From: Phycisphaeraceae bacterium
GTDB taxonomy: Bacteria > Planctomycetota > Phycisphaerae > Phycisphaerales > Phycisphaeraceae
DNA: 64,000 nucleotides
Direction: 5' to 3'
Assembly (NCBI GenBank): GCA_963674705.1
Contig: OY771506.1
Coordinates: 1,984,001-2,048,000 of the forward strand
Positions 7,586-49,672 of the stretch are shown piece after piece. The position numbers were made by a program, and so were the translations under genes. Position 1 is the first letter of the stretch, and the number at the start of each line of letters is the position of its first letter. The notes beneath the pieces are model-generated. The model was not told the origin of the DNA. It saw nothing but the letters and a program-made list of their open reading frames with translations, and made no database searches.

Positions 7586-8467
7586 TTATGCCGCGGCCAG
7601 CGGCGGTCCGGTTATAGGTTTTCCATCATACGCTTCGTCCGGCGTCCGTCCAGCGAGTGTCGAGTGCGGACGCTCGGTGTTGTAGAACCGCAGCCATTCA
7701 TTGATCCCGGCGCGAGCTTCGCTGCCTCTGTCCCACGCGTGCAGGTACACGCATTCGTACTTCAGGCTCCGCCACAGACGTTCGATGAACACGTTGTCCA
7801 TCCATCGGCCTTTGCCGTCCATCGATACCTTCGCGCCCGCGCTCTTCACTGTTTCGGTCCATTCCAGGCCGGTGAACTGGCTGCCCTGATCGGTGTTGAT
7901 GATCTGCGGCGGGCCGTGCTTGCTCAGCGCTTCTTCCAACGCCTCGACGCAGAATGACGCTTCCATCGTGTTGCTCAATCGCCAGGCCAGCACCTTCCTG
8001 CTGTGCCAGTCCATGACCGCAACGAGGTACAAAAAGCCGCGTCGCATCGGGATGTATGTGATGTCGGCGCACCACACATGACCCGGCTGATCAATCTTCA
8101 GATTCCGCAGCAGGTACGGATACACCTTGTTTTCAAGGCATTTGACGCTGGTCTTCGGGGCCTGGTAGATCGGCGTCAAACCCATCTGGCGCATCAATCG
8201 ACGCACACGCTTGCGGCCGACGTTGTAGCCAAGCCGACGCAACCAACGCATCATCTGCCGGCTGCCGTAGAACGGCGTGCACAGGAACTGTCGGTCGATC
8301 AGACGCATCAGCTTCAGGTTCAACGGGCTCTCGCCTTTGCCTGAAAAGTAAAACGACGATCGGCTGATCGACACCAGCCCACACTGACGCACGATGCTCA
8401 GCTCGGGGTGCTTGGGTTCGACCATGTCGCAGCGGCGGCCGTGGCTCAAAGCCCCAACCCTTTTTTT
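7586..8467 (-). CDS. IS3 transposase OrfB (DDE), reached by -1 frameshift from orfA
   Basis: PFYGSR, WCADITY, DWHSR, TDQGSQF, ERLWRSLKYE. Confidence 0.93.
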   Translation of the reverse strand, partial: KKRVGALSHGRRCDMVEPKHPELSIVRQCGLVSISRSSFYFSGKGESPLNLKLMRLIDRQFLCTPFYGSRQMMRWLRRLGYNVGRKRVRRLMRQMGLTPIYQAPKTSVKCLENKVYPYLLRNLKIDQPGHVWCADITYIPMRRGFLYLVAVMDWHSRKVLAWRLSNTMEASFCVEALEEALSKHGPPQIINTDQGSQFTGLEWTETVKSAGAKVSMDGKGRWMDNVFIERLWRSLKYECVYLHAWDRGSEARAGINEWLRFYNTERPHSTLAGRTPDEAYDGKPITGPPLAAA

Positions 8468-8727
8468 AAAAAGTCCTTCTCGATGGTCAGCTCGCCGATC
8501 TTCGCGTGCAGCTCTTTGATCTGCTCGTCGGATGCCTGCGGGTCCTTGCCGCCGCCACGGGCAAAAAGCTGGGCCGCCTCCTGTGCCAGCAGCTTCTTCC
8601 ACCCGCCGATCATGTTCGGATGCACGTCGTACTTCTTGGCGATCTCCGCCACCGTCAACTCGCCACGCAGCGCCTCCAGCGCCACCTTCGCCTTGAATTC
8701 AGCCGTAAATCGTCGTCGCTTGCTCAT
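8446..8727 (-). CDS. IS3 transposase OrfA (HTH)
   Basis: RRRFTAEFKAKVALEAL...IAKKYDVHPNMIGGWKK...IGELTIEKDFLKK. Confidence 0.93.
   Translation of the reverse strand: MSKRRRFTAEFKAKVALEALRGELTVAEIAKKYDVHPNMIGGWKKLLAQEAAQLFARGGGKDPQASDEQIKELHAKIGELTIEKDFLKKGLGL
8460..8473 (-). promoter_or_regulatory. Programmed -1 ribosomal frameshift site (CTTTTTAAAAAAAG)
   Basis: A7G slippery run where orfA (FLKKG) and orfB (FKKRV) overlap in the -1 frame. Confidence 0.85.
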
Positions 8728-23564: not shown

Positions 23565-23623
23565 TGGTATTCGAACTGTATCCGGTGAATATGAAGTTCT
23601 CTCGGGGTTTTGGGGTTTATATC

Positions 23624-23790
23624 TAGTGCGGTCCAAACCGTATTCGGGAAGCTCGCACCAAAAGATAGAGACTAATCCCACTGGATCGAGGATTTTTGTC
23701 CCGGATATGTGACACTTCGCGGTGGTATCAGGCGGCGCGAGAAGGTGGGGGAGAGGTCCGGTGCGGATCGGGCCTGCTTGGCGTTCCTTC
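23624..23790 (+). mobile_element. Non-coding end fragment of an IS-like element
   Basis: About 155 bp near-identical to 42543-42710 (GGTCCAAACCGTATTCGGGAAGCTCGCACC...). Confidence 0.8.
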
Positions 23791-28705: not shown

Positions 28706-29929
28706 ATGCAGCTACTGAATAACACCGCAGCCCTTAGGATCATCGATAGCGTCGCCATCGTCTTGGGACAAGCCATGCAACTTGCGCGGGCACGGGTAGC
28801 GTCTGTGGGCTCATCGGTGCTCAGGATGATGGCGGAGCGGGATCACGCACATGGCGAGTCAGATCTGCTGCGGCGTGAGTTGGAGGTCTTCCGAGCCCAG
28901 CGTGAGAACATGCAACCTCACAAACGACCGGAGTACCCACCCGAGCAAAGACTGGCGATCCTGCAGATCATGAGGCTGCGGGGCTGGAACGCGGTCGTTA
29001 CGGCCAAACGGTTCGTGCTTCATCCGAATACCGTCCGCGCCTGGGTTCAGGCCGTGGAGGGGCGTCGTGAATCGGGTCGTCTGTTGGGTGATCTACCGTG
29101 GAACAGGGTCCATGATGCGGTACGTTGGGCGGTCCATGAATTACGTCGTCTTTGCCCTGAACCAGAGATCGGCACCCGAACGGTCGCCAGGCATCTGCTT
29201 CGCTCTGGCATTCAGATCAGCCGGAGCACGGTGCAGCGGGTATCACGTGAAGAGAAGCCACCAAGCCCCAGGCGATCGCGAGCCGGGATGCTGGAAGCGG
29301 CGGGGGCCCAACCGCGTCATCTGCTGGCACCGGTGTCTCCTAACGAGGTCTGGCATCTGGACTTGGCTGAACTTCGTATCGTGCGGTTCCGCTATACGAT
29401 TGCAGCGCTACTGGACGGCTACTCAAGGAAGCTCTTGGCACTCAAGGTCTACCAGAGCTCTCCGAACAGCGCTGACATAGTTGGTCTCATGCGGGATACG
29501 ATCCACCGGTTCGGATCACCGAGATTCCTCATCACGGATCATGAATGTCAGTTCAGGTGGCGCTTCCGCACAGAAGTGGGGGAGCTGAACGTGAAAGTCG
29601 TTCGGGGCCGGGTGCGTTGTCCGGCGTTCAACGGCAAAGTCGAGCGGTTCTTTAAGACCTTACGTACATGGCAACGCCGGACCTTCCTGCCGCTGAGCCT
29701 GTCGGGTATTCAGCGGAAGCTGGATGTGTTTCTTTACTGGTACAACACCGAGAGACCACACCAGGGGATCAAAGGGCTGACGCCAAACGAGGCTTGGGCG
29801 GGTGAAACGCTGACTGGCTCGATCGCGTTCCGGTCAGCAAGAAGCGTATCGCCTCGCATCCGTATCAGACGGCGTTCATGCCGTGGCGACCCGTGCCTAC
29901 CGTCGATCCGTGTCCGTGTTGCCACCTAG
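28706..29929 (+). CDS. DDE integrase-core transposase (IS3/IS481-like superfamily)
   Basis: HTH; WHLD, LLDGYSR, LITDH, NGKVERFFKTL, YNTERPHQGI. Confidence 0.88.
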   Translation: MQLLNNTAALRIIDSVAIVLGQAMQLARARVASVGSSVLRMMAERDHAHGESDLLRRELEVFRAQRENMQPHKRPEYPPEQRLAILQIMRLRGWNAVVTAKRFVLHPNTVRAWVQAVEGRRESGRLLGDLPWNRVHDAVRWAVHELRRLCPEPEIGTRTVARHLLRSGIQISRSTVQRVSREEKPPSPRRSRAGMLEAAGAQPRHLLAPVSPNEVWHLDLAELRIVRFRYTIAALLDGYSRKLLALKVYQSSPNSADIVGLMRDTIHRFGSPRFLITDHECQFRWRFRTEVGELNVKVVRGRVRCPAFNGKVERFFKTLRTWQRRTFLPLSLSGIQRKLDVFLYWYNTERPHQGIKGLTPNEAWAGETLTGSIAFRSARSVSPRIRIRRRSCRGDPCLPSIRVRVAT

Positions 29930-30316: not shown

Positions 30317-30697
30317 TTATCTTGATTTCATTTCACGGTGACATGGCGATTGGGCTAGAGTGAAAACCAACACTTCTTCACCCGTGACGGTGCTAACATC
30401 GTGATGAAGACTCACAACCTTAGTACCAGTTATGTCGCTTATCATGGCTTCCATCAGCGGACGCGCGGTTTCAATCAGGTGCGTCCGTACCTGCTTGAGT
30501 AAATCCCGCCCCTTCTCCGAGGGCAGCGTTTTAACCAAGTGCTGCTCCGCGGCGGTCAAGACACCCTCAAGCCGGACTACAAGAAAGTCCCGGATCAAAT
30601 GTGCGCGAATACCTTTAGGCCCCCGCCCCATGTAATCCTGTTCAAAACGGCTAATCGCTTCGCAGACTGCGGCCTCAATTTCGCCTAGCGTTTTCAT
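30317..30697 (-). CDS. DUF2294 / MpsC-family protein
   Basis: MKTLGEIEAAVCEAISRFEQDYMGRGPK...RLEGVLTAAEQHL...GRDLLKQVR...SLHHDVSTVTGEEV. Confidence 0.88.
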   Translation of the reverse strand: MKTLGEIEAAVCEAISRFEQDYMGRGPKGIRAHLIRDFLVVRLEGVLTAAEQHLVKTLPSEKGRDLLKQVRTHLIETARPLMEAMISDITGTKVVSLHHDVSTVTGEEVLVFTLAQSPCHREMKSR

Positions 30698-30879
30698 GAT
30701 TGCCTCGGTTGCGTGATTCAATATTGACGTAACATCTGTGAAATCAATGAGACGTGGCTTGCCGGACCCAATAATACCGCCACCACATTGATATGTCCTC
30801 TGGTACTTATTTTACCCAATATCAAACGGGATTACTTGATATGACTTGCTTTCCCAAACAAGCCCGCTATTGTGTAGAT

Positions 30880-31022
30880 AGTGTCGAAGCCAAGGCGGTG
30901 CTATATCGGTTTCGATATCGGATGACTAGGTAAAGGGCAGACCGAATAAGAGGTAGGCCCGTTGACAAGTAAGCCGATGTGGTTCACCACCCCCAGGGTG
31001 CGGAACCACATCGGCTTTTTTT
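30880..31022 (+). promoter_or_regulatory. Conserved leader RNA / transcription attenuator, copy 1
   Basis: TCGGATGACTAG..GGGC-stem-AGGCCCGTTGA..AGTAAGCCGATGTGG; terminator AAGCCGATGTGGTTC/GAACCACATCGGCTT with T-run; repeated at 32864. Confidence 0.85.
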
Positions 31023-31109
31023 CTTGCTGATATCAGTGACTGTTCAGGATGCCTACAAAGCAAGAAATTTCTTTGATTGCAGGTCATCAACGTACAAAAG
31101 GAACCCGTC

Positions 31110-31388
31110 ATGTCCACGATGAACGCGCCGACACTTCAGCCAGCAGGTAGTGACAACCGGTGGGAACATATCGGTGAAAGCCAGGGCTGTGCCAACCACG
31201 ACCATGACATTGTGCATGAGTTGAGTCGGCGCCTAGACGCCGTCTGGCGATACGACCAGTTCATCGCTAACGCGGAAGGTCGTGAAGCACTTCAGTCGTG
31301 CTGGAGAGAATTCAAGGAGCATGATATGCAGAGCATCATGCGTCTGAAGGCGATTTTGAAGAATGAGATTATGAATGGCTGTTTCTGA
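31110..31388 (+). CDS. Small helical hypothetical protein (possibly ferritin-like)
   Basis: SD AAGGA; NHDHDIVHELSRRLDAVWRYDQFIANA; first gene after leader 1. Confidence 0.7.
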   Translation: MSTMNAPTLQPAGSDNRWEHIGESQGCANHDHDIVHELSRRLDAVWRYDQFIANAEGREALQSCWREFKEHDMQSIMRLKAILKNEIMNGCF

Positions 31389-31429
31389 CTCGTATTGATC
31401 ATTTGTGACAATAACCAAAGCAGGATGCG

Positions 31430-31819
31430 ATGAATGAGAACCGACTGACGATGGTCCAGCAGGTGGCAAGGGCAGCCAGTATCTACCAACAACAGCAAAC
31501 CGGTCATGCTCCTAAGAGAGTAACCGTCGTATTGGGCGAGGGGACGCTGGTAATCACGCTACACGGTGCTCTTACTCCCGCAGAACAGGCTTTGGCTGTG
31601 AATCCGGCTGGCGCCGCGGAGGTGCAGAACTTCCATCGTCAACTCTTCGCCAATAGTTCCGATTCACTAAGGAAGGAGATTGAAGCGATCACCGGAATAG
31701 ATATACGTGATGCGGCCTTGGAGGTTGAAACATCGACCGGGTCCGTGTTACACGCCTTCTCCGGCGGCACCGTGGTTCAGGTATTTCTGATGGCTGAGAA
31801 TCTGTCTGTGGAAATATGA
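31430..31819 (+). CDS. DUF2294 / MpsC-like protein
   Basis: QQQTGHAPKRVTVVL..TLVITLHGALTPAEQAL aligns with GRGPK...LEGVLTAAEQHL. Confidence 0.8.
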   Translation: MNENRLTMVQQVARAASIYQQQQTGHAPKRVTVVLGEGTLVITLHGALTPAEQALAVNPAGAAEVQNFHRQLFANSSDSLRKEIEAITGIDIRDAALEVETSTGSVLHAFSGGTVVQVFLMAENLSVEI

Positions 31820-32034
31820 GATGCGGTAACAGAGGACACGCCGCCGGATCCCAACACGGGGTGATTGGATGGGGCATGTTATCACGGATTCGCAGCAAGA
31901 CGGTCGATGCCATCCATTGACAGCGGGCATTCACCCAATTCTCCCGGGCGCAAGATAATTCAGGTAACGGTACGCCGCGATAGTTAAATCGAATTTGTCT
32001 TGTACAAGTTCGATTCATTGAAAGGAAAATGATT

Positions 32035-32187
32035 ATGTTATGGACAATTACAATTATTGCAGTCGTATTATGGCTGCTTGGACTTCTAACCTCTTACACG
32101 CTCGGCGGTGTAATTCACATTCTGCTTGTGATAGCGCTCGTTGCGGTAGTCATTCAATTGATCCAGAATCGCAGGCTCTCGACGTAG
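32035..32187 (+). CDS. lmo0937-family (DUF5670-like) 50-aa membrane protein
   Basis: Not in ORF track; SD GAAAGGA; MLWTITIIAVVLWLLGLLTSYTLGGVIHILLVIALVAVVIQLIQNRRLST. Confidence 0.85.
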   Translation: MLWTITIIAVVLWLLGLLTSYTLGGVIHILLVIALVAVVIQLIQNRRLST

Positions 32188-32218
32188 GAGGCACGCTCAA
32201 ATTCAAAAGGCACGTGGA

Positions 32219-32428
32219 ATGGTAACAATCAAACATTATTCAGAGAGATCTCGACTATCAACATCTCGCTCGGAGGACAACTCGCGGCAAGTCGGGGAAC
32301 ACCCGCCCTCTCACGACGACATCAGCTATCGAGCATATGAGATCTATGTCAGAAATGGCTTCATCCAGGGTCAGTGTAAGCTTGACTGGCATCAAGCGGA
32401 GTGTGAACTGCTAAACAAAAATACATGA
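32219..32428 (+). CDS. DUF2934-domain protein
   Basis: PSHDDISYRAYEIY...G...DWHQAECEL. Confidence 0.8.
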   Translation: MVTIKHYSERSRLSTSRSEDNSRQVGEHPPSHDDISYRAYEIYVRNGFIQGQCKLDWHQAECELLNKNT

Positions 32429-32789
32429 CAAAAGCAATACACGGCGATAGGGCAATCATGGCAACCGTTTAACATACGGGTATTACTGCTAGGCAGAGAC
32501 GGTTGCCGGCCTTACGGAGGGTAAAGGCCGGCACCGGCTGCCCGGTGGGGAATTGGAGTTTATTGACAGATAATAATTACGGTGGCAGCGGAGCAATGAT
32601 GTAAGCAGCAACGTGATCAATCTACAAACGTTTGGTAAGGGGGAACTGCATGCGAATGTGGATGCTTGCCAGATATGATGTGTAGTGACATCGATTGGAT
32701 CGCAGGACGAGGTCGACGGGTATATCACTGCAGCGATGATGTTTGTTAGGCATATATTGATTATTCCCTTGTATGTTACGACAAGAAGT

Positions 32790-32966
32790 TTGATTTAAAT
32801 GCCCTGTTGACTATAATAGATACGAAAATGGAGCCGGAATGAAGTAGATGAAGGTCTCCAGCTTCGGATGACTAGCTAAGGGGCAAGTCGTACACCGCGA
32901 CAGGCCCGTTGAAGAGTAAGCCGATGTGGTTCAGCACCCCAGGTGCCGTTCCACGTCGGCTTTTTT
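32790..32966 (+). promoter_or_regulatory. Promoter plus conserved leader RNA / attenuator, copy 2
   Basis: TTGATT..TATAAT (32790-32817); motif 32864-32966 ends in AAGCCGATGTGG/CCACGTCGGCTT with T6. Confidence 0.85.
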
Positions 32967-33006
32967 GTTTTACCGATTTAGGCCAGCAATGACTGGATTT
33001 ACAACA

Positions 33007-33414
33007 ATGACAAAAGGCATGGCAATCCCAACGATGACACAACAGGTGGAACAACTGGTTATCGCCCAACTCAAACAACAGACCGGCAAGGCGCCGGCCT
33101 CAGTGACGATCGTGTTCTACGGAAGTAGTCTAGCGATCAAGCTGCATGAAGCTCTGTCACCTACCGAGTTAGCAATGCTTAGATGCCCAGAGGGTGCTGA
33201 ACGAGTACAGGAAGTTCAACGCCGATTCTTCTCCAATACATTATCTGTGTTACGGGAGGAGATCAAACGGATCATGGGTCTACACATAGAGGAAGGCAGT
33301 ACCGAGATACAAGCAACGACGGGGACCGTAATCCATACGCTTGGAACAACCAACATTAAGCACAAAATCATGTCCGCTCAGATGGTTTCATGGGACAGTT
33401 GGAGTGGTAGTTGA
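33007..33414 (+). CDS. DUF2294 / MpsC-like protein (divergent)
   Basis: KQQTGKAPASVTIV..LAIKLHEALSPTELAM; paralog of 31430; real start lies after the terminator. Confidence 0.75.
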   Translation: MTKGMAIPTMTQQVEQLVIAQLKQQTGKAPASVTIVFYGSSLAIKLHEALSPTELAMLRCPEGAERVQEVQRRFFSNTLSVLREEIKRIMGLHIEEGSTEIQATTGTVIHTLGTTNIKHKIMSAQMVSWDSWSGS

Positions 33415-34522: not shown

Positions 34523-34960
34523 ATGGCTACCGTTAAAGATATTCTTGTTAATAATGATCGCCCGGTCCCCAGCATCGGTCCGCAAGTTACAGTGCTGCAG
34601 GCAGCAAAGCAAATGAACGGTTACAAGGTTGGGGCCTTGGTTGTATGTGCGAATGGAGAATGCCTGGGCATCTTTACTGAACGGGATCTGTTACGGTGTT
34701 TTGCGTCAACACCAGACGTATTGCAGCAGACATTAGTTGACGCAGTCATGACCCGTGACCTGCTGGTTTGCTCGCCAAACACAACAATAAAAGATGCTCG
34801 GCTTCTGATGGTGGCTCGGAAAATTCGCAATCTGCCGGTTATCGACACCACAGGGGCCGTGATAGGCTTGATCTCGCTCGGGGACCTGGATGCCCACGAA
34901 CTAGGTGATCATGAGTTAGAGAATCACTACCTGAAAAAGTATCTATACACTCGCAATTAA
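34523..34960 (+). CDS. CBS-domain pair protein
   Basis: VGALVV..GIFTERDLL; VMTR; IRNLPVID..GLISLGDL. Confidence 0.92.
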   Translation: MATVKDILVNNDRPVPSIGPQVTVLQAAKQMNGYKVGALVVCANGECLGIFTERDLLRCFASTPDVLQQTLVDAVMTRDLLVCSPNTTIKDARLLMVARKIRNLPVIDTTGAVIGLISLGDLDAHELGDHELENHYLKKYLYTRN

Positions 34961-36738: not shown

Positions 36739-37149
36739 ATGAGTGAGGAAAGCAAAATGTCTTCCATATCACCGACAAGTACGATAGCCGTCGTGGATAT
36801 TCCGGATAAGTACGGTATCACACGACTCAACAGAGCCACCTGGAGCAGGAATCCACGTGCAGTAGAGTTTTTGCTTGCTAAAGGGGCCAATATCAATGGT
36901 CTGGGCTACCACGGGCACACCTTGCTCCAGAGCGCCGCTATCTGCAATGACATGCCTTGGACCAGGCTGCTTCTGGATTACGGCGCAGATCCAAACGCTT
37001 TGGATCCAGGCAACGGACTGTCGGCTTTGAATTATGCAGTGCAAGCCGGACACAAGGAGATTGTTGAACTACTGCTTGCCCATGGCGCTAAACGAGGACG
37101 ATCAGTGCCGCACGATCAACCATTGCCGGCAGATGAATCCGAGACATAA
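36739..37149 (+). CDS. Ankyrin-repeat protein
   Basis: VEFLLAKGANIN, LLLDYGADPN, SALNYAVQAGHKEIVELLLAHGA. Confidence 0.88.
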   Translation: MSEESKMSSISPTSTIAVVDIPDKYGITRLNRATWSRNPRAVEFLLAKGANINGLGYHGHTLLQSAAICNDMPWTRLLLDYGADPNALDPGNGLSALNYAVQAGHKEIVELLLAHGAKRGRSVPHDQPLPADESET

Positions 37150-37160
37150 AGATTATTTGA

Positions 37161-37421
37161 ATGAGCAACCACAAACATGACTTCCCAACCCGAGCGAGAG
37201 AGATGCCTTCGATGGTCCACTATCTTGCTGAACATCAACAGAGCATTACCGGGCCCAGGACCTTGGCCCAGACATTTACCGATTATCGGCGACTTTTACT
37301 ATCCGGAGCGGTCAAACTGGTCAGATATGAACATGAGCAAATCCTAAGTATGAACCCAGACAAAGTGAACTGGATCGACGCCTATGAATGGTGGAAGAGT
37401 AGTTCTGAAACAATGTCTTGA
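37161..37421 (+). CDS. Hypothetical protein
   Basis: Co-directional ORF filling the gap; no recognisable motif. Confidence 0.4.
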   Translation: MSNHKHDFPTRAREMPSMVHYLAEHQQSITGPRTLAQTFTDYRRLLLSGAVKLVRYEHEQILSMNPDKVNWIDAYEWWKSSSETMS

Positions 37422-37496
37422 CGACATACGAGATAGGCCCGCCTCAGTATTTGGGGTGATGCCGTTTGAATCACAGAGAGGTGGTGAGCATAAGCC

Positions 37497-38925
37497 ATGC
37501 GCTTATTCCTAATCAATCCGTCCAACCCGTTGGTGAGCTTGGCTCAACGCAGTCGTTGGCGGAAGTACCGTGTATGGAAGCCGCTGGGGCTTATGGTGAT
37601 CGCAGCTCTGACGCCTGAAGCGGAATGGGATGTGACAATCATAGACGAGAATCTCGGTATGCCGGACTATGCAAATCTACCCCGGCCCCGACCTTGTTGG
37701 CATCACCGCCTTTACCTCGCAAGCACCTCGGGCTTATCAGATCGCGGCTATATTCCGTAGCATGGGTGTGCCTGTCATCATGGGTGGCATCCACGCATCG
37801 ATGTGTACCGATGAGGCGCTGGAGTATGTTGATACTGTTGTACAGGGTGAGGCCGAATCTATCTGGCCGTCGGTGCTCCTTGATGCCCAACACGGCATGC
37901 TGAAACGGCATTATATTGGTGAGTCAGCCGATCTGGCATCCGTACCACCGGCTCGCCATGACCTGTTGACGCATGGCTACGCATTCGGCTCCATCCAAAC
38001 CACACGCGGCTGTCCTTTGAATTGTCACTTCTGCAGTGTGTCCGCTTTCAATGGACATCGTTATCGCCATCGTCCAATAGGTGATGTGGTTGATGAGCTT
38101 GCGATGATACCAGAACGTATGGTTCTGGTAGTGGATGATAACTTGATCGGTACACGCGATGAGCACATCGTGCGTGCCAAGAAGCTATTCCGTGCCATCA
38201 TCGACGCTGGCATCAACAAGAAGTGGATATGCCAAGCAACCATTAATCTTGCAGATGACGAGGAATTGCTTCAATTGGCGAGGCGCGCTGGCTGTGTCGG
38301 TGTGTTTATCGGCTTCGAAACAACCTCAGACGAGGGGCTGGTTGAATTGGGTAAACGCTACAACATCCTCAAGGGTGGCGATCTGCGAGCCAGTGTCAAG
38401 CGCATCCACCGTTACGGCATTTCGATCGTGGGGTCCTTCATCATGGGGCTGGATAGCGATAAAGTAGGTGTGGGCAAACATATTGCCGAGACCGCAAGCT
38501 ATTATGGCGTGGACCTACTGAACCCCGTATTCATGACACCGTTACCTGGAACACGGCTGTGGGAAAATATGAACAAGCAGCATCGTATAGCTGCGAATCG
38601 TTATCCTGAAGAATGGAAGTACTATACCCTCAGCTATCCTGTGGCCCGGCACTGCAATCTATCCTGGCGTCAGCTAATTAATGAAATGAATCATTGTTGT
38701 CGAAATTTCTATTCGCCGCTCACGATGCTTAAACGCATTGTCGGTAGCATCAGGCACTGGCGAAGCCCACTGACTATGCTCGTGGCCAATCTGTCTTACC
38801 GCCGTAATTGGCTATCAGATCACCGGGCGATGCACAACATGGACACTAGCCGTGGAACTGAGTGGGACGGAAAGGATGGTCGATCTAATACAAAGTCTTT
38901 ACCTGGCGAATGCGGTCCGCAATAA
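37497..38925 (+). pseudogene. B12-binding radical SAM protein split by a single-base frameshift near 37686-37689
   Basis: N-part KPLGLMVIAALTP..IIDEN..YANLPRP continues as PDLVGIT in another frame; GGIHAS, GEAE, RGCPLNCHFC, IGFET. Confidence 0.85.
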
Positions 38926-39738: not shown

Positions 39739-40017
39739 TTAGTAACGCCCGCCACGGTTTCCGCCGCCTGGGCGGGACTCGCGGGGCTTGGCTTCGTTGA
39801 CGTTGAGGCTGCGACCTTCAAACTCGTTGCCGTTAAGCTCGGTGATTGCCTTGCCAGCACCTTGATCATCCATGGTGACAAATGCGAAACCGCGTGGCCG
39901 GCCGGTCTCGCGATCTGTGACGAGTGCCACCTCACTGACCGTGCCGTAGTTGCTGAACAGGTCTTCGAGGTTCTCCTGCGTGGTTTTAAAACTGAGATTG
40001 CCGACGTAGATCTTCAC
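39739..40017 (-). CDS. RRM (RNP-1) RNA-binding protein
   Basis: GTG start with [15 protein letters not shown] (RNP2), RGFAFVTM (RNP1), Gly/Arg tail. Confidence 0.95.
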
Positions 40018-40605
40018 AATAAAGCTCCTGGGGAGAGGCGTACGTGTGGGCTGCCAAACAATGGAGCTTTGCGAGCGACTCAAGATTGGGTCCGGTTAGA
40101 GCCGGACTCTTTATATTATATGGCCATTCGTCTCAATTACAATATGACGTTATTTTGTCCTTGGCCAGTATATCCATTGACCGCGTCTTAACCGCAATCG
40201 TAGGGATCGCCTCTCCCTATGTCGGGCTATACTTATAGTTCATACACATGTTCCAGAATAAACTATCGCTTTTTATATAAACCAACGCTTTGCCAGCTAA
40301 TCCGATCTACAATGAAGATAATAAAATGGTCTGAAGATATGGAATGCCAATATCTTGTCGGTTCCCATTGTTCGAGTATTAACGGCGGCATCTGGATGCC
40401 GCCCTTGCAAGACCAAAGACTATCATGAACATACTGCTAAGGCGCATAATTCATGGGCAAAAGCGGACAGTGCCCGACATTATGAGCCACCTCCGGCCGT
40501 GGGCCACTTCACTGCATCTCAAGTGGTCGCGTTGAATCACACTTCTGAGTGTTTAAACGCGGTATTAGATGTGCAATACGGAGCCAAATGATAGGTGATT
40601 AGAGC

Positions 40606-42244: not shown

Positions 42245-42540
42245 TTACCCTGTATTCCTAAGGTCAGCAGCTATCGCTTGAACGGTGCCGCGGATGGCGT
42301 GTTCGATCTTCGGGGTTGTTGTGACATCTTCCCCGGCATTTTTACGGCGCCACAACTCTATCTGAATAAGGTTGAGCATATCGACGTATGGTGTGCGGAC
42401 ACGGATGGTTCTTTCAAGCCAAGGTGCTTCTTTAAGCAAGCGCGGTTGTCGCTTGATATGCAATACAGCGTGGCGAGCCTTCTTAAACTCGTCTGCGAGT
42501 GCTTGCCAAATTGGTTCAAAGGTTTGGGGTTTGGCTGCTA
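42245..42540 (-). pseudogene. ppc: C-terminal remnant of phosphoenolpyruvate carboxylase, truncated by an IS end
   Basis: ..IWQALADEF..VLHI..LL..PWLERTIRVRTPYVDMLNLIQIEL..TVQAIAADLRNTG-stop; reading frame runs to the element end at 42543. Confidence 0.85.
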
Positions 42541-42542
42541 GT

Positions 42543-43165
42543 TAGAGTGGTCCAAACCGTATTCGGGAAGCTCGCACCAAAAGATAGAGACTAATCCCAC
42601 TGGATCGAGGATTTTTTGTCCCGGATATGTGACACTTCGCGGTGGTATCAGGCGGCGCGAGAAGGTGGGGGAGAGGTCCGGTGCGGATCGGCCTTACTTG
42701 GCGTTGCTCCGGGGGTGGTCCATAATATTGGGCAGTTGTTATTACTGCACTTAGGGGAGTGGAAAAGATGCTGCCGCGTTGGGTGATTGTGTTGTTTGCA
42801 TTGCTTACCGAGGCTTGGTCGGTCCGCCGAGATAACCAGATCCGGTTCCTGAAACTTCAACTCGAACTGTACAAGGGGAAGGTGCCAGGCAACCGTGTGA
42901 TCCTGTCTCCGGAAGAGCGTCGTCGCATGCTTCGGTTGGGCAAAAAGCTGGAGCATCAAGGTAGATGATCTCGTCGGGATCGTGAGTGTCAAGACGTACA
43001 GGCGGTGGTTGCGTGAACAAAAAGAGGGCCGAGAGCCGGGTCGAGTTGGTCGCCGCCGCGTAGTTCCTCCTTCGTTCCGCGCGTTGATCCTTCGCCTGTC
43101 CCGTGAGAACACCGGCTGGGGCGTTCGGCGGATCGTGGGAGAGTTGAAAAACTGGCGCTAAGCGG
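42543..43165 (+). mobile_element. Degenerate IS: terminal sequence plus frameshifted, truncated integrase-core transposase N-terminus
   Basis: TAGAGTGGTCCAAACC end; MLPRW..RRDNQIRFLKLQLE, then a shift into LILRLSRENTGWGVRRIVGELK. Confidence 0.82.
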
Positions 43166-43809
43166 ACGCGGACCAAGGATGCCGGACCTCAATGGTCGGG
43201 CTGGGGCCAACGACCTCGTGGCGGTGAATGAGGCCGGCTTTCGCAAACTACTCACTGGCGGGTCCTATGGGACGATGCCGAATAGATGCTTGGAGCCCCC
43301 GCGTTCGGTCAGCGACCACTTGACAGAGGCTTGCTCATAGATGCCCGACAAATTGAACCGGCCCCAGCAGGCGGTGGTTTTCGCCAAAACTGCAAATGGA
43401 CCACTTCAAGATCATTTCTTCCATGCTCTGCTGAGCAGCGGTCTTTTTTGACGCGCCGATCGAGCCATATTTGTTCGTTAAGTGAAATTATTAAAAATGC
43501 ATATTATCTCATAAATGATCTTGTAATTTGAATATCAATCAATTAGCCTCTCTTTAATATTTACATAGAATGAAATATTCTATGGTTGTTACGTGCTGTT
43601 ATTCGCTTACAGGATCAACACTTGTGGTAGTACAGCGACAATATCAGGGTCGCTTTTCAAGTCTGGATCAACTCGGAGGATCAGGGTGCTCGGTTACATG
43701 GGGAAGCTAAGAACAGGGGAATCATTAACTACCAGAACATTTCAGATGCTTGCAGGGCGGTGTTGTGTACGAACGTCAATTCACTCACTTGTATAGGGGA
43801 CACCTTTCG

Positions 43810-48940: not shown

Positions 48941-49560
48941 TAGAGTGGTCCAAACCCTCTTCGGGAAGCCGGGTATGATTTTTTTGTGGTGCTGGCCCGG
49001 TGAATTTCAGATTTCTTTAAGACAAATCGGGGGTGTTTGGGGTGTGGTAGAGTGGTCCAAACCCTCTTCGGGAAGTCGGGTATGATTTTTTTGTGGTGCT
49101 GGCCCGCTGGATTTCAGATTTATTCAAAAAGATTTGGGGGTGCTTCAGCGGGAACCAGTGGGGCGAAGGGGGCCAGGCAAATCGGCATCGACTGGCAATC
49201 CGCCGGGGGTGGTCCATAATGTTGGGCACTTGCCAATACTGGACTTAGGGGAGTGGAGAAGATGTTGCCGCGTTGGGTGTTTGTGCTGTTTGTATTGCTC
49301 AGCGAGGCCTGGTCGGTCCGTCGAGATAACCAGATCCGGTTTCTGAAACTCCAACTCGAACTGTTTAAGGGGAAGGTGCCGGGCAACCGTGTAATCCCGT
49401 CGCCGGAAGAGCGGCAGCGGCTGATTCGGTTGGGCAAAAAGCTGGAGCATAAAGTAGATGATCTCGTCGGGATCGTGACTGTCAAGACCTACAAGCGCTG
49501 GCTTTGAGAAGAGAAGGCGGGTCGGGCTCCGGGTTGCGTAGGCCGACCGCGCCGGATGGC
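48941..49560 (+). mobile_element. Degenerate IS with tandemly duplicated 107-bp end and truncated transposase (49253-49507)
   Basis: TAGAGTGGTCCAAACC at 48941 and 49048; ORF homologous to 42759 with a premature TGA. Confidence 0.82.
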
Positions 49561-49672
49561 GGGCAACACATATATAATCCGGTTGCAGCATTCTTTGATC
49601 GGCGGCGCTCAAACACACCCACAATTCAGATGATGATCTATCTGTACAGCGAGGGTATCAGGGTGGGAAGGT

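Follow-up and report, generated by a model that had tools for sequence, protein, structure and literature searches.

Within a stretch of 64,000 nucleotides from the genome of a Phycisphaeraceae bacterium (contig OY771506.1, positions 1,984,001 to 2,048,000; this whole stretch is called the window below), three genes of the DUF2294/MpsC family, here named A, B and C, lie around two RNA leaders that contain intrinsic terminators. The locus raises the question of what allows transcription to proceed past these terminators and to which signal it responds. The original prediction was that all three proteins bind the leaders as trans-acting antiterminators and perhaps sense inorganic carbon. Our analysis suggests a narrower answer. 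Protein-dependent antitermination by the A-type DUF2294 protein is the mechanism we consider most likely and, on the sequence comparisons described below, rather probable, and its signal in the window would be a general stress cue and not CO2. The comparative support for antitermination is strong for A and for a fusion of an A-type domain to a receiver domain, but it does not extend to all three genes, because the invariant basic residues are gone from the B subfamily.

Membership of PF10057 (MpsC/DUF2294) was defined as a score above the Pfam gathering cut-off of 23 bits, which all three window open reading frames (ORFs) exceed; no other Pfam family is found in them. These scores, together with the alignment and folds of the leaders, confirm the arrangement of three DUF2294 genes and two leaders (Table 1). 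Canonical gene A is transcribed away from leader 1, as had been described, and the region upstream of A shows no attenuator-like hairpin with a U tract, in agreement with the claim that it has no attenuator of its own; a simple terminator scan was also empty there, a null that is weak because the same scan overlooked both real terminators. B and C do lie downstream of the two attenuators, C following leader 2, but B is only the second gene after leader 1, with a 92-aa ORF in between. In other genomes this ORF recurs between a leader of the same type (type I) and a B-type gene. B and C share 37% identity, and A and B about 30%. In the source genome, which is 96.6% complete, 6 leader copies and 5 PF10057 genes are spread over two islands; 4 of these leaders and 2 of the genes lie in island 2 (3.57-3.61 Mb; G000:C1:3564000-3611000; L001-L003). 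The leaders of island 2 precede a copy of the 92-aa ORF followed by a B gene, a CBS fragment followed by ferritin, an ORF followed by Hsp20-groES-groEL, and an outer-membrane barrel. The second A-type domain is encoded in the same island too, fused behind a receiver domain, and its gene follows that of a CheB-CheR-PAS-HWE kinase.

The two window leaders (about 30917-31023 and about 32865-32967) are identical in 81% of aligned columns, and their folds reach z-scores of -6.9 (leader 1) and -5.0 (leader 2) against 200 shuffles. In both of them one strand serves two structures, as the 3' side of the basal stem and as the 5' side of the terminator, and the antiterminator and the terminator thus overlap; they are attenuators in the sense that a conserved upstream hairpin excludes an intrinsic terminator. 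Because the terminator is the more stable structure by 8.4 and 8.8 kcal/mol, respectively, something would have to hold the hairpin for read-through to occur. A look for RNA sequencing runs that contain the stretch gave none. Rfam covariance models gave zero matches in the window at the gathering score, and only two chance rows with E values of 5-8.

Table 1. Positions of the leader elements, the genes around them and the ppc remnant in the window
Feature	Position	Strand	Basis or remark
DUF2294 paralog A (canonical, 126 aa)	30317-30697	-	PF10057, 128 bits
Sigma-70-like promoter, leader 1	30846-30873	+	By eye; similar hexamers precede island-2 copies; consensus scan blank here
Short 5' hairpin preceding leader 1	30883-30916	+	Seen in the source genome's copies
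Leader 1 antiterminator hairpin (type I motif)	30917-30978	+	Fold, alignment
Leader 1 intrinsic terminator, overlapping the antiterminator base	30971-31023	+	Fold; 8.4 kcal/mol ahead of antiterminator
92-aa ORF without Pfam family	31110-31388	+	His-rich, helical
DUF2294 paralog B (129 aa), conserved acidic subfamily	31430-31819	+	PF10057, 71 bits
DUF5670 small membrane protein	32035-32187	+	Pfam match
DUF2934 protein	32219-32428	+	Pfam match
Sigma-70-like promoter, leader 2	32790-32817	+	Consensus scan, 10/12 matches
Leader 2 antiterminator hairpin (type I motif)	32865-32923	+	Fold, alignment
Leader 2 intrinsic terminator	32918-32967	+	8.8 kcal/mol ahead of antiterminator
DUF2294 paralog C (B-type, more diverged; start codon uncertain)	about 32989-33414	+	PF10057, 55 bits
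ppc 3' remnant, beside insertion sequence remnant	42245-42541	-	PEPcase model positions 822-919 of 919

A pattern scan of metagenomes gave at least 132 stretches, and the alignment used to examine the type I motif comprises 137 distinct copies from metagenome stretches, genomes and one viral contig. Excluded from it were copies longer than 64 nt, copies cut at the 5' end, and the 11 of 151 distinct matches that miss the terminator pattern, some of which are contig-end cuts or chance matches. The motif is an unbranched hairpin of about 60 nt with 21 pairs, symmetric internal loops and conserved non-paired loop nucleotides. Across the 137 copies 94.4% of cells are paired and both sides have changed in 12 of the 21 pairs; the covariation score exceeds that of all 500 shuffles and of all slid controls, which are at most 48% paired, and RNAalifold recovered 17 of the 21 pairs unaided. 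The basal pairs carry no covariation evidence because the search pattern fixed them, and the upper helices do carry it. The type I leader RNA is real and appears to be undescribed. We found no papers tying DUF2294/MpsC to an RNA leader, in a search for which most of the subscription literature was outside reach and the supplement of PMC11109978, whose 107 protein-binding candidates might include the motif, was not compared. Viral contigs gave 8 pattern matches with one true leader, which stands directly upstream of an A-type DUF2294 gene (L165).

In the mechanism that we propose, the conserved leader hairpin overlaps a stronger intrinsic terminator and termination would be the default. A would bind the internal loops of the hairpin in trans and hold the hairpin, giving read-through into general-stress genes. 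The binder would be either A or the island-2 fusion of receiver and DUF2294 domains behind the CheB/CheR-PAS-HWE kinase, and with the fusion as binder read-through would depend on phosphorylation. B and C, which would be made only after read-through and do not have the basic residues, may damp or tune A, probably by pairing. Paralog A is likely an RNA-binding antiterminator and paralog B is likely a feedback regulator more than an RNA binder. In a sister clade, A proteins and a second leader type (type II) would act in this way on genes that handle CO2 or bicarbonate.

The co-occurrence of the motif with DUF2294, which had been suggested as a check, was followed in one family (f6) and in a sample of the phylum. 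Among 151 genomes of family f6, 43 have leader and gene, 6 the leader only, 11 the gene only and 91 neither. DUF2294 is therefore present in 43 of 49 leader-bearing genomes versus 11 of 102 leader-free ones, an odds ratio of 59 among kin that are not independent. Up to 27 copies of the type I leader are found in one genome of this family. In the phylum sample (150 genomes) the type I leader is found in 3, all within the 13 PF10057-positive genomes and each with a B gene behind the leader, and none of the 137 PF10057-negative genomes has either leader type. Where B-type loci were retrieved through the protein alone (at least two loci), a leader lies just upstream in both of the matches listed. 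Among the metagenome copies listed as matches, 18 of 107 have the start of a B gene no more than 330 nt away, and 22 of 116 have a divergent A gene within 300 nt; most leaders are distant from a DUF2294 gene, which fits a factor acting in trans.

Where genomes have no type I leader, a promoter-like site, a type II hairpin and a CO2-handling gene often come next after an A gene. The type II hairpin is related to type I, is shorter and overlaps a terminator. Stand-alone A loci that lack a type I leader numbered 27 (L290 and L308 were excluded), and a CO2-handling gene follows A in 11 of them: PEPCK in 6 (two being weak ATP-type matches below the cut-off), SbtA in 2 (one broken and read by eye), beta-carbonic anhydrase in 2 (one below the cut-off) and a NuoL/DabB-like subunit in 1. 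In the remaining 16 the next gene is DUF4914, ArgG, unrelated or unnamed, or the locus is cut by a contig end. The type II structure has 89% of cells paired over 11 sequences and 29 double changes versus 11 in shuffles, figures that come from the same 11 sequences from which the structure was derived; the number of covarying pairs alone is not significant (42 of 500). In the 150 phylum genomes the type II model matched only its 8 training genomes and none of the 137 PF10057-negative ones. Elsewhere it gave 7 new matches and one near-copy before SbtA. Three of the new matches, all in one genus, lie before PFOR; the other four lie before PEPCK, a transposase, a contig end and an unnamed gene that follows DUF2294, one each. 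At one locus (L186, G011:C69), DUF2294 forms the N-terminus of a GTP-type PEPCK, as one fused gene behind a type II leader. A third kind of leader, longer and likewise with a terminator, lies about 200 nt downstream of A-type genes in family f6 (L249, L251, L255, L264); it precedes a NuoL-like subunit, a beta-carbonic anhydrase-like gene and others and is matched by neither model.

The pairing is also seen in Firmicutes. The 3 DUF2294 matches in the plasmid collection all come from this phylum: the gene stands before sbtA in an Anoxybacillus plasmid, after ndhF-dabA in a Staphylococcus pettenkoferi plasmid, and before a major facilitator superfamily transporter in the third, a clostridial Acetoanaerobium record, where the type I model, applied blind, matches a leader directly after DUF2294 (22.7 bits, E 0.002). 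These three records make up the Firmicutes evidence. Neither the type I nor the type II model matches the ndhF leader of the staphylococcal plasmid. The tie between leader and DUF2294 reaches past one island and one phylum. In the Anoxybacillus plasmid, hairpin-terminator leaders lie on both sides of DUF2294, upstream of sbtA (L283:7820-7985 and 8370-8470), and neither model is significant there.

A quick, unrooted tree of 89 A domains, with leader labels taken from the RNA and with moderate support, places all 47 type-I-linked rows in one group (56 rows; SH-like approximate likelihood ratio test, SH-aLRT, 81) and all 10 type-II rows with 3 Firmicutes rows in the other (30 rows, SH-aLRT 95). 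Families f1 and f6 occur in both groups, and the split follows the leader type and not the host family. This result bears on the possibility of a riboswitch: the leader might respond to a small molecule or ion, for example bicarbonate, Na+ or a nucleotide signal, with DUF2294 merely co-regulated in the same pathway. The highly conserved loop nucleotides, the high number of leader copies per genome, the 6 leader-bearing genomes without DUF2294 and the coherent set of CO2 genes behind type II leaders would all suit a riboswitch. We nevertheless regard it as unlikely: the leader does not control A, because A is upstream of or divergent from it, the consensus folds give one unbranched hairpin, the protein clade is tracked by the RNA type, and one ligand would not explain the unrelated gene sets behind types I and II.

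R25, R42, K68, R71 and R79 are invariant among 39 A proteins, and the A domains of both systems share invariant G24-R25-G26-P27, R42, K68, R71, R79, H98 and D100. The B-type subfamily is itself large and conserved (3513 matches) and is more acidic than A; R42, K68, R71 and R79 are all replaced in it, with T at position 42 in 95% and H at position 71 in 91% of 45 proteins. In the AlphaFold model of A (mean confidence score, pLDDT, of 92), the predicted topology is alpha-beta-beta-alpha-alpha-beta-beta and K68, R71 and R79 lie on one long helix. Among 120 longer homologs a receiver domain is present in 48, PAS or PilZ in single ones, and PRD or ANTAR domains in none; the receiver fusion gives DUF2294 the layout of an output domain. 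DUF2294 could also bind with other logic, either B/C or an A-B heterodimer being the binder or binding favouring termination. The B subfamily has invariant residues of its own (H45, H69, R70), and B where it lies close to the leader takes the usual place of an autoregulator, but type II genomes mostly have A alone, and the structure that is conserved is the hairpin, whose formation excludes the terminator, so that read-through follows from stabilising it. We consider such logic very unlikely.

Several observations weigh against antitermination by A. In formal terms the motif does occur in genomes lacking DUF2294, a finding that the original prediction had named as contrary to it: no PF10057 match was found in 6 of the 49 leader-bearing genomes of family f6, five of these searched again with protein A still gave none, and the stretches of 9-18 kb around the leaders of all six hold no DUF2294. 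All six are fragmented drafts, of 100-980 contigs, with one leader at a contig end. Co-occurrence alone could reflect hitchhiking, because gene and leader share a mobile island, and three genomes have B-type genes without the leader. Type I leaders fall short of significance with the type II model (best E 0.47), so the kinship of the two RNAs rests on shared layout and weak cross-matches. The A proteins are not basic overall (median isoelectric point 6.4), and comparison of the fold of the A model gave no clear match to a known RNA-binding protein: RbfA, compared for the KH type II/RbfA-like RNA-binding fold, with Z 5.7 and a root-mean-square deviation of 3.9 over 88 aligned residues, is level with unrelated folds (best Z 6.7). 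Foldseek gave no match to the model at E 0.001, these fold comparisons show neither absence nor novelty, sequence and profile searches of solved structures gave no match, and the ESM Atlas holds PF10057 clusters with nothing usable beyond them. Finally, 47 of the 86 inner branches of the quick tree are open.

The second part of the question is the signal. We extracted 124 ORFs behind type I leaders and scanned 81 of them, B-type genes and spurious-looking ORFs being excluded. CsrA (5), CsbD (4), receiver domains (4), DUF3309 (3) and BON (2) were found among these 81, together with Usp, phosphoketolase and acetate kinase, families that we take to be a general-stress set. Carbonic anhydrase, SbtA, Dab, PEPCK and PFOR families were found in none of the 81. 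The window had been described as lacking an mpsAB-like transporter; DabA, SbtA and beta-carbonic anhydrase have no match in the whole 96.6%-complete genome, where SulP, other carbonic anhydrase classes and PEPCK were not searched. The ppc remnant that had been placed in the same island is real but lies 9 kb distant beside an insertion sequence remnant, and no intact ppc turned up in a motif scan of the source genome; as evidence for CO2 sensing we rejected it, as distant debris outside the circuit. That the type I circuit of the window senses CO2 or bicarbonate is a reading that overlaps with the one we favour and differs in the signal only. The sister clade does have links to CO2-handling genes and the ppc remnant does exist, but because of the 0/81 count and the absent DabA, SbtA and beta-carbonic anhydrase matches we judge CO2 sensing here quite unlikely, and the A proteins linked to type I leaders group apart, kinase-controlled fusions among them. 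The CO2 idea thus finds no support for the type I leaders of the window and does find it in the sister DUF2294 clade, with its PEPCK, SbtA, carbonic anhydrase and PFOR genes. Part of that clade has the dabA/mpsB, sbtA or carbonic anhydrase gene that defines an MpsAB/DAB inorganic-carbon locus, and CO2 sensing by it is plausible.

It could also be that another island protein binds the hairpin, such as a CsrA paralog, the 92-aa ORF or the RRM protein at 39739-40083, and that DUF2294 only rides the same mobile island. CsrA paralogs stand behind type I leaders (5 of the 81 ORFs) and one is found in island 2, the leader contains GGA, and insertion sequence elements flank the islands. The GGA, however, is in the basal stem, outside the hairpin loop, and no such island surrounds the type II and Firmicutes loci, where a leader is likewise paired with DUF2294, which makes this explanation a very improbable one.

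By analogy, the DUF2294-leader system would work like the BglG or ANTAR systems, and it belongs to neither. In BglG/SacY/LicT systems transcription terminates by default, at an intrinsic terminator that overlaps an imperfect hairpin with internal loops, the ribonucleic antiterminator (RAT), and the regulator gene lies beside its target. The DUF2294 leaders share the looped imperfect hairpin over a terminator and the adjoining regulator, but the window proteins contain PF10057 only and no CAT or PRD domain, the hairpin of about 60 nt is twice a RAT, and the targets are stress or CO2 genes and not sugar operons. ANTAR proteins (AmiR, NasT, EutV) use an all-helical domain that binds twin small hairpins. 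DUF2294 resembles them as a small domain that stands alone or behind receiver/PAS domains and has many leader targets per genome; it differs in its predicted alpha/beta fold and in its RNA of one long hairpin, and the three window proteins have no ANTAR Pfam match. Staphylococcal MpsC and Bacillus YbcI belong to the same family, PF10057, whereas the window proteins fall in another clade, beside stress genes. The ybcI gene presumably forms the end of the B. subtilis ndhF-mpsB-canC operon.

According to the accessible text of PMC6689103, mpsC deletion leaves growth unimpaired, E. coli complementation does not require mpsC, which is dispensable for transport, and mpsA is lower at 5% CO2. Candidate RNAs, either terminator-bearing or small RNAs, are placed upstream of ndhF in the accessible portions of two studies (RsaX05, PMC2790875; ncr181, PMC2965217), and the available part of a description of the B. 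subtilis ndhF-mpsB-canC operon leaves mpsC and attenuation unmentioned (bioRxiv 10.64898/2026.09.08.750065). The Rhodopirellula-1 motif is likewise a hairpin repeated in Planctomycetes and not in Rfam (PMC2864571, Weinberg 2010, as far as its accessible text goes); we rejected it as the identity of the leader, the available supplement rows showing another sequence with no such overlapping terminator.

In all likelihood these proteins are antiterminators of a new family, one that serves two regulons. The broadest form of this proposal is tentative and may well not hold in full: DUF2294/MpsC would be an unrecognised RNA-binding antiterminator family with its own hairpins in Planctomycetota and Firmicutes, one branch a CO2/bicarbonate switch and the other a kinase-driven stress regulator. 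If true, the targets of the CO2 branch would be PEPCK, PFOR, SbtA, carbonic anhydrase and MpsAB/DAB, the stress branch in Planctomycetota would be a rewired, kinase-driven regulon with up to 27 leaders, and it would be explained why mpsC lies beside mpsAB and yet is dispensable and why mpsA drops at 5% CO2. The proposal gives a testable function to a widespread uncharacterised protein beside the staphylococcal bicarbonate pump, and a possible explanation of how non-photosynthetic bacteria set their genes for CO2 uptake and carboxylation according to CO2. With it come two RNA motifs that Rfam does not contain and a pointer to control of the general stress response at the level of RNA in Planctomycetota; a 126-aa protein and a 60-nt RNA could be tested within weeks.

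The surroundings of the leaders show further features. Besides its CsrA paralog, island 2 contains a further copy of the DUF502-ankyrin-radical SAM block found in the window at 36739-38925. The 3' end of a CBS gene of the window (34523-34960) recurs as a 60-aa fragment (G000:C1:3581744-3581926) fused directly behind one of the island-2 leaders. The flank of that leader matches the sequence that follows leader 2 in the window, and we read the recurrent fragment and the matching flank as a sign of rearrangement between the islands. In genus g58 (L286-L288, L291) a B-type DUF2294 gene without leader or A abuts a FloA gene and resembles an island remnant. An rve-type transposase (28706-29929), insertion sequence remnants (42650-43200 and 49100-49620) and a repeated, inverted-repeat-like end (near 23600-23750) are present in the window, and at positions 43750-62627 genes for LamG, PEP-CTERM, sialidase-like and glycoside hydrolase proteins are clustered with one for a GntR regulator, none of them related to the leaders.

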